Shown here in pieces: positions 9,692 to 11,410 of a DNA stretch of 64,000 nt (positions are counted from its first letter, which is position 1; each line of letters starts with the position of its first letter). The DNA comes from Corallococcus exiguus (GTDB taxonomy: Bacteria; Myxococcota; Myxococcia; Myxococcales; Myxococcaceae), in NCBI RefSeq assembly GCF_012985275.1, contig NZ_JABEKY010000003.1; one strand, 5' to 3'. A model generated the notes under the pieces. The model did not search any database. It was not told where the DNA came from and saw nothing but the letters and a program-made list of their open reading frames with translations. The translations under genes and the position numbers were made by a program.

Positions 9692-11410
9692 CTACTTGTT
9701 GATGCGCACCATGGCCACGTCGTAGTGGCGCTCGGTCACGTAGCCGTTCGCGGCCTTGCCGGGGCGGTACATGTTCCCGGTCTTGTCATCCACGTAGAAG
9801 CGGTTGTTCGGGTTCGTGTCCTTGCCCGTGCTGGCGTTCTTCGTGCCCGGGTCGTGGAACGTGTAGTAGGTGCGGCCCTTGTCGTCGACGCCGCGGCCCG
9901 TGATGGTCACGAAGTGGTCCGTGAGGCCGTCCGCGTTGTAGCTCGCGTCCTTGTGGCTCACGCCCACGACCACCGGCTTGCCGGCCTCCAGCTGCTTGTC
10001 GATGTAGCTGCGGCCCTCGGCGGCCTTCTTCGAGTCCACGTTGAGCGCGCCGACGCCGTTCTCGCTCTTGCCCACCTGGATGCGGCGGTCCGGGCCCAGC
10101 ACGGTCGCGCCGGAGTCACGCGCCATCGCCGTCGCGGCCTTGAAGCACGCCGTGTCGCTCGCGGTGTAGCCGTGGCCGTTCTCGAACTGGCTGTAGTACG
10201 GCACCTTCACGTGCACCGCCGGCTTGTCCTTGGACGGGGCCACCTGCTCCGTGTTCGCGGGGGCCGCCTCCGTGGTGGGCTTGGAGGTGTTCGTGCCCTG
10301 CGTCGTGGGCTTGCCTTCCGTGGTGCCCGGCTTCGAACCGTTGTTCACGGACGGGGGAACCACGCCCGTGTTGGTGTTGGCCGGCTTCGTCGTGGTGCCC
10401 GACTTCTCCTGCTTCAGCATCGCGAGGGCGTCCTTCGCCTCCGACTTGAAGCGGTTGGCCACGCCCTTCTGCACGTCCTTGGAGCTGCCGGAGAAGTGCA
10501 CCAGGGTGCCGCTGGCGTTGGTGCGGCCGCGCTCGGCGTAGATGTCCTTGATGAGCTGCTCGTCGCTCACCTTCGCGGGGTCGCGCCCGTTGAGCGCCTT
10601 CTTGAAGATGTCGTCCGCCTTGCCCGGGCCGTGCTGCACGGAGGTGGACCAGGCCACGTCCCGCAGCGCCGCGGAGCGCTTGTCCAGGTCGATGCCCGTC
10701 GCCTTCTTGATGTTGGCGGCGCCCGCGTCGTAGTGCGTGGTCTTGATGTAGTCGTGCTGCGCCTTGTCGAAGCCCTTCGGGTCCTTCGCGGCCAGCTGCT
10801 TCCACGCGGCGGAGAACTCCGCGGTGCCCGGCTTGCTGCCCGACAGCGCCTTGTGGAACTCCGGGTTCGTCTTCTTCAGCGAGTTGACGAACGACTGCGC
10901 GGACCCGTTCGCGGAGGCGAACTGGTAGGAGCCGTAGGACACGCCGCCCTTGTCACCCTTGCCCGTGGACACGGTGCCGGGGCCGCGAGCCTCATACTTG
11001 CGGCTCAGCCCGCCCAGCTCCCCGTTGGTCGCGCTGCTGGATGACGTGTTCGTCGCGGGCGTCGTCGCCTTCGCGCCGTCCGTGGACTGCGTGAAGCTGT
11101 CGCCCGACGTCTTCGTCCCCGCGCTCGACTTGTTGGTGCCCTTCGTGTCGAAGCCGTCCTGCACCTTCAGCGTCTGGCCAGCCAGGATCTTGTTCGGATC
11201 CTTGATGTTGTTCGCCTTGGCCAGCGCGTCAACGGTGGTGTTGTAGCGCTTCGCGAGGCCGGAAAGCGTGTCACCCGACTGGATGCGAACGTTGGAGACG
11301 GTCACGGAGAAGACCCCTCTATGTCTGGCCGCGACCAAAGGCGCCGCGGACGTGCTTGGATTGACCGGATTATCGAAAGGCAATGCGATCAGTTTCGCAT
11401 TCCCAGTCAC
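9692..11410 (-). CDS. multi-domain cell-wall hydrolase-like protein: LysM, a central domain with a [12 protein letters not shown] motif, and a C-terminal papain-like Peptidase_C39_2-like domain. No signal peptide.
   Basis: The LysM is [41 protein letters not shown]. The linker is rich in Gly/Ser/Thr/Lys. The C-terminal [27 protein letters not shown]...DHFVTITG gives a Cys/His pair, typical of C39-like peptidases. An in-frame stop immediately upstream of 11410 excludes a longer N-terminus. Confidence 0.7.

Follow-up and report, generated by a model that had tools for sequence, protein, structure and literature searches.

The closest described relatives of the gene pair considered here are antibacterial effectors that attack peptidoglycan, together with the immunity proteins that neutralize them. 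The C-terminal domain of Vibrio cholerae VgrG3 is a peptidoglycan glycoside hydrolase that acts in the periplasm and is neutralized by a periplasmic immunity protein (TsiV3/TsaB; PMC6099711). BtaeB (Bfe7) is a type VI secretion system (T6SS) effector of Bacteroides fragilis with the immunity protein BtaiB (PDB 9JDD, 9JG8/9; PMC13402684). The Acinetobacter baumannii effectors Tae17 and Tse4/Tpe4 kill by wall degradation (PMC11796386; PMC6833914; bioRxiv 10.1101/2021.03.04.433973), and LysM-containing bifunctional peptidoglycan hydrolases of Acinetobacter are proven VgrG-dependent T6SS cargo effectors (PMC6833914; PMC11796386). Finally, some polymorphic toxins end in papain-fold C39-like peptidase cassettes, which have been termed Tox-PL-C39 (Zhang, Aravind et al. 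2012, PMC3482391). In the stretch of Corallococcus exiguus DNA analysed here (64,000 nt of contig NZ_JABEKY010000003.1, hereafter the window) two divergent genes encode a LysM protein without a signal peptide, hereafter the effector, and an exported partner that is probably its immunity protein. Toxin domains that were characterized separately in Vibrio and Bacteroides T6SS effectors are joined in this effector in one polypeptide.

The AlphaFold2 model of the effector (51 homologues) has three confident domains and two disordered low-complexity linkers (Table 1). The N-terminal LysM, recognized already in an earlier note made from the letters of this DNA, matches PF01476 (E 2.4e-15, 56.6 bits against a cut-off of 20.9) and is modelled in a beta-alpha-alpha-beta fold at a predicted local distance difference test score (pLDDT) of ~78, with Foldseek matches to 4uz2 and 5k2l. 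The central domain belongs to PF21277 (T6SS_VgrG3-like_C; E 2.8e-53, 181.1 bits against a cut-off of 27, profile positions 1-182 of 183) and matches the V. cholerae VgrG3 C-terminal domain, the structure of which was solved with its immunity protein (4noo_A/4nso_A; E 1e-29, 34% identity, TM 0.85-0.87); GH46 chitosanases rank next after it among the Foldseek PDB matches. The putative catalytic residues Glu105 (in KYE) and Asp118 (in GKGD), which precede a GGVSYGSYQ motif, align with the same residues of 4noo_A and are conserved in 50 of 50 aligned homologues. In VgrG3 numbering we take this acidic pair to be E827/D842. Because the Pfam, PDB and Foldseek matches agree, the GGVSYGSYQ domain is assigned as a VgrG3-type, GH46-like glycosidase. 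The conserved central domain that had been noticed before is therefore real and its family is one of peptidoglycan glycosidases rather than a non-hydrolytic one, but the suggested likeness to GH108 is not: GH108 and the classical lysozyme families are excluded by Pfam and by the fold.

The C-terminal domain is closest to the C-terminal domain of BtaeB. By phmmer it matches 9jdd_A ('Peptidase C39-like domain-containing protein') at E 8e-21 and 9jg8_C at E 8e-20, and 9jdd_A, whose entry is titled as the type VI secretion system effector-immunity complex BtaeB CTD-BtaiB of Bacteroides fragilis, also comes first in the Foldseek comparison with the PDB (E 8e-13, 31% identity, TMt 0.74); papain-family peptidases are matched as well, weakly. 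The putative peptidase residues Gln373, Cys387, His464 and Asp485 are conserved in 42 of 43 sequences. No Pfam match above threshold covers the C-terminal third of the protein; PF13529 (Peptidase_C39_2) gives no match at E<=1 in the effector and only 'faint' precomputed matches in some orthologues. The assignment is thus made from PDB homology, predicted fold and catalytic residues and not from a Pfam model, so that of the C39-like cysteine peptidase proposed earlier the domain stands, and the Peptidase_C39_2 hidden Markov model (HMM) falls below threshold. Neither the effector nor its neighbours carry the ABC transporter domain that would mark a bacteriocin-processing C39 peptidase, and Pfam finds no VgrG, Phage_GPD or gp5 domain in the effector, whose N-terminus is LysM, so that it is no spike fusion. 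The open reading frame (ORF) and its domains are far beyond chance.

That ORF has 572 codons (9692..11410, minus strand), and its first possible start in the ORF listing is GTG 11410. It cannot be extended upstream, since an in-frame TGA lies 10 codons 5' of GTG 11410 and no start codon intervenes, which agrees with the earlier observation of a stop before the first start. As judged from sequence comparison, translation most likely begins at GTG 11305 and yields a protein of 537 residues; this start is taken because of the N-termini of the orthologues, an AGAGGGG motif 8 nt upstream of GTG 11305, and the ATG found at the equivalent site of 6 out of 7 further species of Corallococcus. The orthologues begin with MTVSN[IV]R.., MTDVSNYR.. 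or MAGVSNYK.., and LysM thus starts at about residue 5. On the same grounds the N-terminus quoted in the earlier note is most likely untranslated. The NCBI start for a 100%-identical C. exiguus protein (P0001, annotated as 'LysM peptidoglycan-binding domain-containing protein') differs from both; it gives 548 residues and omits most of the upstream extension. No signal peptide or lipobox follows from any possible start of the effector ORF, and no signal peptide occurs in any of the ~120 effector homologues listed, including the LysM-PF21277 proteins of Caulobacter and Luteimonas, which bears out the absence claimed before. An upstream start that would add a signal peptide was looked for and is ruled out by the TGA 10 codons before the first possible start.

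The search for an adjacent immunity gene, suggested in the earlier note for the divergent gene at 11499-12533, led to a co-conserved, exported partner that is probably the toxin's immunity protein. Its AlphaFold2 model is all-beta (pLDDT 84.6) and consists of module A, an N-terminal beta-barrel (~33-131) followed by a small SH3-like beta domain (~132-202), and module B, a C-terminal lipocalin-like barrel (~210-340). The partner has no match in Pfam, among PDB sequences, in PADLOC or in PHROG. It shows no sequence similarity to TsiV3 and no top-ranking structural similarity to it. A comparison with BtaiB aligned 111 residues, with BtaiB not listed by Foldseek and no sequence similarity; the 111 aligned residues suit the C-terminal barrel of ~120 residues better than the N-terminal barrel of ~98 residues. 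Other explanations of the partner and other sites for an immunity gene were considered and set aside: an anti-phage defence role (no PADLOC matches), an internal duplication of its two barrels (hhalign probability <1%), and a small ORF 3' of the effector as the immunity gene, where a hairpin and then a convergent hydroxylase gene follow instead.

The two genes are inherited together. Divergently beside the effector, a partner homologue of 45-89% identity is likewise present in C. exercitus, Cystobacter ferrugineus, Archangium violaceum, Stigmatella erecta and Pyxidicoccus xibeiensis, and the pair is also divergent in Myxococcus sp. RHSTA-1-4, the sole Myxococcus in which a full-length effector orthologue was found; none was found in M. 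xanthus, and the effector family is absent among the top matches for most Myxococcus species. The other neighbours of the pair differ between genera, and the chromosomal position of the effector is stable across Corallococcus species. The full-length partner family comprises 51 clusters among 5.8 billion, all myxobacterial, with at least 14 on a contig with an effector orthologue. A genome scan (one genome per species) gave 22 partner loci, 19 of them with a complete three-domain effector divergently upstream and one cut by the contig end just after LysM. The remaining two are orphans from Hyalangium-type metagenome-assembled genomes, with a gene context in common with a truncated orphan of H. 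gracile, and three short partner forms that hold the first 200 residues only are orphan as well; such partners without an effector are typical of immunity genes. The module is confined to myxobacteria of the Cystobacterineae. As far as sequence goes, therefore, the partner adjoins the effector, is co-inherited with it and is predicted to be located in the target compartment, as expected of an effector-immunity pair.

An exhaustive search with the partner profile (1.84 billion representatives, 161 relatives), followed by local reclassification, separated 122 relatives with module A only, 20 with module B only and 50 with both. The module-A-only proteins cover profile positions ~10-200 and are mostly secreted proteins of ~200 residues, and the module-B-only proteins cover positions ~205-337; larger proteins fused to module A or B have no Pfam matches. 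From these profile matches the partner appears to be a fusion of two modules, each of which occurs on its own in other proteins. A few of the single-module proteins coincide with single-enzyme effectors in contig size: the module-B-only P0211 and the peptidase-only effector P0177 are both on contigs of 20450 nt; the module-B-only P0336 and the peptidase-only P0178 are both on contigs of 1472 nt, which the two genes would nearly fill; and the module-A-only P0200 and the LysM-glycosidase effector P0075 are both on contigs of 8244 nt. No further coincidence of this kind appeared in 20 more checks.

We favour, with somewhat better than even confidence, the interpretation that the divergent genes form a toxin-immunity module consisting of a leaderless, LysM-anchored bifunctional peptidoglycan hydrolase and a two-module periplasmic partner. 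LysM would dock the toxin on the glycan strands of peptidoglycan, the VgrG3-C-type glycosidase (Glu105/Asp118) would cut the sugar backbone, and the BtaeB-type peptidase (Cys387/His464/Asp485) would most likely cut the peptide stems, the cross-links or the sugar-peptide amide bond; peptidoglycan is proposed as the peptidase substrate because the domain is repeatedly fused to peptidoglycan-binding modules. With the three domains joined by flexible linkers, simultaneous attack on both polymers of the sacculus should bring about rapid lysis. The partner would be exported by Sec to the periplasm, the site of peptidoglycan, where disulfides may stabilize it; module B, a possibly BtaiB-like barrel, would probably block the peptidase and module A the glycosidase, and both modules together would protect the producer and its kin. 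Since the toxin has neither a Sec nor a Tat signal it must use a specialized envelope-crossing route, and it might be delivered into neighbouring cells as a T6SS cargo effector.

How far the known systems support this interpretation differs from one to another. VgrG3 of V. cholerae (PDB 4NOO, 4NSO) provides a clear homologue of the central domain, with Glu and Asp of KYE...GxGD conserved, but the domain of the effector sits between LysM and a second enzyme without a spike, and the locus has no TsiV3-like gene. BtaeB is a protein of 617 residues whose large N-terminal region engages the adaptor BtapC and the T6SS spike, and no such region is present in the effector; BtaiB is a single barrel of 125 residues whereas the partner is a three-domain protein of 344 residues without sequence similarity to it, and both phylum and gene order differ. 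The BtaeB/BtaiB study is reportedly that of Li et al. 2025, Cell Host Microbe 33:1901, to which PMC13402684 refers. Like Tae17 and Tse4/Tpe4, the effector is leaderless and multidomain, with LysM and with glycan-cleaving and peptide- or amide-cleaving activities (predicted here); unlike it, these have unrelated folds (Amidase_5, lytic transglycosylase, M23), their genes adjoin a cognate vgrG and their N-terminal region binds VgrG, and neither the linkage nor the region is seen in the effector. By description the effector's peptidase resembles the Tox-PL-C39 cassettes, and relatives of it are borne by an Rhs-repeat protein and by a WXG100-like carrier; the effector's own carrier is the LysM-glycosidase only, with no recognized trafficking stalk.

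Several observations weigh against the proposed module, and some of them concern delivery. No T6SS, PAAR, Rhs, adaptor or chaperone gene is present among the confidently coding ORFs of the 64-kb window, and none of vgrG, hcp, PAAR, adaptor (DUF4123, DUF1795, DUF2169) or T6SS genes within 4-10 kb at five orthologous loci (L001-L005); more generally, secretion-system, phage and Rhs/PAAR genes are lacking both in the window's confidently coding ORFs and around the orthologues. The effector has no folded N-terminal trafficking domain: Pfam finds no PAAR, Rhs or DUF4150 and only LysM before the toxin domains, and for MIX and FIX, which have no Pfam model, no folded segment remains to hold them. The alignment with BtaeB is confined to the C-terminal third of that protein and does not reach the part that binds the adaptor; a protein of 537 residues is too large for the Hcp lumen; and the pair is divergent, unlike the usual co-directional effector-immunity operon. 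As to the assignment of the modules, the tie of the module-only proteins to the effectors P0177, P0178 and P0075, through contigs of equal size, is indirect. There is no partner homologue near the glycosidase-only effectors of Caulobacter, Luteimonas, Myxococcaceae GXIMD and M. landrumensis; modules A and B are absent beside 30 metagenomic peptidase-domain proteins, even with iterated HMMs, many of these adjoining some other small signal-peptide protein; and one three-domain effector (L035) lacks a partner in 1.5 kb upstream.

T6SS export remains the leading candidate, since in other phyla each of the two toxin domains is delivered by a T6SS, and by this analogy it is plausible; taken as a separate step we regard it as tentative, its chances being somewhat short of even. 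The export by a T6SS or another contact-dependent route that the earlier note had proposed is accordingly without linked T6SS, adaptor, PAAR or Rhs genes and without a trafficking domain, and its alternative, a phage endolysin, finds no support in the gene context. Its functional guess was otherwise largely right, in that the LysM and C39-like domains are upheld and a toxin that binds and hydrolyses peptidoglycan is the reading favoured here; the GH108 label, the quoted N-terminus and the delivery context are not. In M. xanthus the T6SS serves kin conflict, and the killing of prey does not require it; the same study states that the wall-degrading toxin of contact-dependent predation is still undiscovered (Seef et al. 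2021, PMC8460266), which leaves room for a non-T6SS route. A distinctly doubtful extension along this line is that LysM-led leaderless toxins are exported by such a route, either the myxobacterial delivery for prey lysis or a general undescribed exporter, with the partner as a 'double antidote' fusion for a 'double toxin'. The general exporter is suggested by the leaderless LysM-PF21277 proteins of Caulobacter and Luteimonas, which have no secretion-system genes in +/-8 kb.

The lack of a secretion machine at the locus is shared ground for two further explanations, both of them tied to predation. Corallococcus is a predator, and the effector might be an extracellular predatory or digestive lysin, released by lysis, vesicles or unrecognized export and acting on Gram-positive prey, on the exposed sacculi of killed prey or on fungal chitin or chitosan, with the partner shielding the producer's wall or having an unrelated role. 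Besides peptidoglycan, LysM also binds chitin; the structures nearest to the central domain after VgrG3C are those of GH46 chitosanases; and the Caulobacter and Luteimonas proteins just mentioned, leaderless and without T6SS genes in +/-8 kb, fit this explanation as well. Yet a secreted enzyme normally has a signal peptide, and none is found across the family; a conserved periplasmic partner and orphan partners make little sense for an enzyme outside an intact outer membrane; both enzyme domains are nearest to antibacterial toxins with immunity proteins; and a family missing from the top matches for most Myxococcus species is not a core predation enzyme. We therefore consider an extracellular lysin rather unlikely. 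A contact-dependent predation toxin, i.e. the 'missing' prey-lysing wall hydrolase delivered by the Tad-like Kil apparatus, a needle-less type III secretion system (T3SS*) or an undescribed exporter, seems improbable. It would agree with the dispensability of the M. xanthus T6SS for prey killing (PMC8460266) and with an effector that is leaderless, predicted to degrade peptidoglycan and unlinked to T6SS genes; but kil, tad and T3SS genes are absent from the window, no full-length orthologue was found in M. xanthus, where Kil was defined, and a folded LysM from about residue 5 leaves no room for an N-terminal signal of T3SS type. The patchy spread, the immunity-like partner and the orphan immunity genes suit antagonism between kin or competitors better.

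Two more explanations are of a different kind. Were the effector an endogenous autolysin for remodelling of the cell's own wall in development, sporulation or programmed lysis, with the partner as its periplasmic regulator, it would share a common autolysin design, and myxobacteria do remodel or remove peptidoglycan in sporulation. The NCBIfam matches to DipM, ActS and MltD that recall this design arise through LysM only and lie far below the cut-offs, however, and an enzyme that lacks a signal peptide has no access to the periplasm of its own cell; with a module that is patchy, absent from most Myxococcus species and represented in Hyalangium by orphan partners, this explanation is very unlikely. 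Least credible is a phage-derived lysin, whether an endolysin or a wall hydrolase of the virion, from a prophage or a prophage remnant; we hold it to be extremely unlikely even though the effector is leaderless as endolysins are, its LysM matches several PHROG endolysin families, and jumbo phages of Erwinia and Dickeya have giant proteins that contain a PF21277 module. None of the loci shows a holin, spanin, capsid, tail or integrase gene, and the neighbours are housekeeping genes; the GC content at third codon positions (GC3) is host-typical, phage relatives are seen neither for the peptidase domain nor for the partner, and the position is stable across Corallococcus.

A toxin-immunity module of the kind preferred here is in one respect familiar, i.e. 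as a peptidoglycan-targeting antibacterial effector with cognate immunity. What is new is the combination of VgrG3C-type and BtaeB-type domains in one protein, the lack of a delivery domain or a secretion-system linkage, the divergent gene order and the unannotated partner modules. Two such modules, formerly unannotated, are thereby defined (~120 clusters for A, ~20 clusters for B); they probably inhibit a lysozyme-like glycosidase and a papain-fold peptidoglycan peptidase. Several groups seek the myxobacterial wall hydrolases of kin conflict and prey lysis, and the locus offers a genetically testable two-gene candidate. Should export prove to be independent of a T6SS, the leaderless LysM-PF21277 proteins, of which other phyla have many, would indicate an unrecognized secretion pathway.

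Both enzyme domains are found on other proteins. In other leaderless proteins the peptidase domain stands by itself, is joined to LysM only or to SH3_3 or PG_binding_1, follows a WXG100-like N-terminus or closes an Rhs-repeat protein, and these proteins usually adjoin a small signal-peptide protein; PF21277 occurs behind WXG100-like N-termini, at the end of an Rhs core and in the jumbo-phage proteins. Because both domains recur on Rhs, WXG100-like or VgrG carriers, both enzymes appear to be mobile polymorphic-toxin cassettes that ride on specialized delivery carriers. The proteins with toxin domains behind WXG100-like N-termini (P0065, P0071, P0087, P0185) come from GC-rich organisms, one of them annotated as Chloroflexota, and such carriers imply a type VII-like delivery in other lineages. 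In one case (L065) the C39-like toxin domain ends an Rhs-repeat protein of 1436 residues. On a low-GC metagenome contig (L061, 6-3943) a large protein ends in the C39-like toxin domain, and behind its gene come, in tandem, three paralogous genes for lipoproteins of ~225 residues; the locus looks like a polymorphic toxin with an array of immunity genes.

Other leaderless LysM proteins vary the combination of enzymes. Pyxidicoccus xibeiensis has, 4.4 kb from its orthologous effector, a second leaderless protein of 488 residues (L005, 12008-13474, plus strand) with an SLT lytic transglycosylase, LysM and Peptidase_C39_2, the peptidase domain of which is only distantly related (25% identity). Two metagenome contigs (L038, 2912-4537; L042, 258-1871) encode proteins of 537-541 residues with an N-terminal LysM and a C-terminal C39-like domain; their middle ~300 residues match neither PF21277 nor any other Pfam family and may be an alternative second enzyme. 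In Caulobacter rhizosphaerae (L006, 5984-7837, minus strand) a leaderless LysM-LysM-PF21277 protein has divergent genes for a 'Phospholipase-like' (PF26363) and an ankyrin-repeat protein upstream, and these two might form a further toxin/immunity pair; genes for flagellar export lie at the edge of the region.

Table 1. Coordinates of the effector, its domains, the partner gene and the flanking elements in the window.
Feature	Coordinates	Strand	Remarks
Effector coding sequence	9692..11305	-	537 residues (MTVSNVRIQ...); stop 9692-9694; likeliest start GTG 11305; GC3 0.95
In-frame upstream extension, 35 codons	11306..11410	-	Probably 5' leader; as protein unconserved in orthologues
LysM peptidoglycan/chitin-binding domain, residues ~3-49	11159..11299	-	PF01476, fold, Foldseek
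Linker 1, Ser/Thr/Gly/Lys-rich, disordered, residues 51-94	11024..11155	-	pLDDT <50; length and sequence variable in orthologues
VgrG3-C-like glycoside hydrolase domain, residues 95-303	10397..11023	-	PF21277; lysozyme/GH46-chitosanase fold; pLDDT >90
Linker 2, Thr/Pro/Lys/Gly-rich, disordered, residues 304-358	10232..10396	-	pLDDT <50
BtaeB-CTD-like papain-fold cysteine peptidase domain, residues 359-537	9695..10231	-	phmmer, Foldseek, catalytic residues
Partner gene	11499..12533	+	344 residues; Sec signal peptide residues 1-28, cleavage ASA/Q (between A and Q); 8 invariant cysteines
Intergenic region between the divergent effector and partner genes, 193 bp	11306..11498		Conserved; promoters presumed
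GC-rich hairpin between the convergent effector and aromatic-amino-acid-hydroxylase genes	9627..9660		15-bp stem

The region between the two divergent genes is unusually well conserved in Corallococcus, as seen in an alignment of seven other species of the genus (e.g. ...GAAACTGAAGTT.CCGGAATCACTGGTTTGACACGATTGTGACTGGGAATG....). No sigma-70 consensus was detected in it; it is presumed to hold the promoters of both genes and may hold a regulator binding site. On the other side of the effector the folded region of the hairpin has a minimum free energy of -50.1 kcal/mol (z -4.4 against shuffles). The hairpin is below the rule of the terminator scan because it has no T-run, and is a likely bidirectional terminator to judge from its position and predicted fold. 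The convergent gene beyond it (7992-9587, plus strand), which adjoins the effector in Corallococcus only, encodes a 531-residue homologue of biopterin-dependent aromatic amino-acid hydroxylases that matches the catalytic domain over residues ~25-155 only and greatly exceeds that domain in length.

The confidently coding ORFs of the window further include an M1 peptidase, a Kelch/PKD protein, a LysR regulator, HmuY-like and vault-like proteins, dehydrogenases, QPRTase, ValRS, GroEL, a GGDEF response regulator, a histidine kinase, a transglutaminase-like protein, protein kinases, an insertion sequence (IS) transposase, SodA and an AAA ATPase. Next to the partner, and convergent with it, lies a gene for an exported protein of 551 residues with (T)DAGT-type repeats and no Pfam match (12530-14185, minus strand), its stop overlapping that of the partner by 4 nt; it adjoins a gene for an exported HmuY-like protein (14110-15144, minus strand; E 2.6e-13) with repeats of the same type. 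The gene at 15230-17506 (minus strand) encodes a 758-residue bacterial homologue of the eukaryotic major vault protein, with Vault repeats and the MVP shoulder domain (E 9e-45), and C. exercitus has it conserved in the corresponding location (L001, 3779-6058). Apart from the IS-type DDE transposase (DDE_Tnp_1; 46830-47882, minus strand), ~35 kb from the effector, no mobile-element gene was seen in the window. The valyl-tRNA synthetase (23402-26881, minus strand) ends in a Lys/Ala/Pro-rich C-terminal tail of ~110 residues that matches histone H1-like HC2 and extensin-like models.

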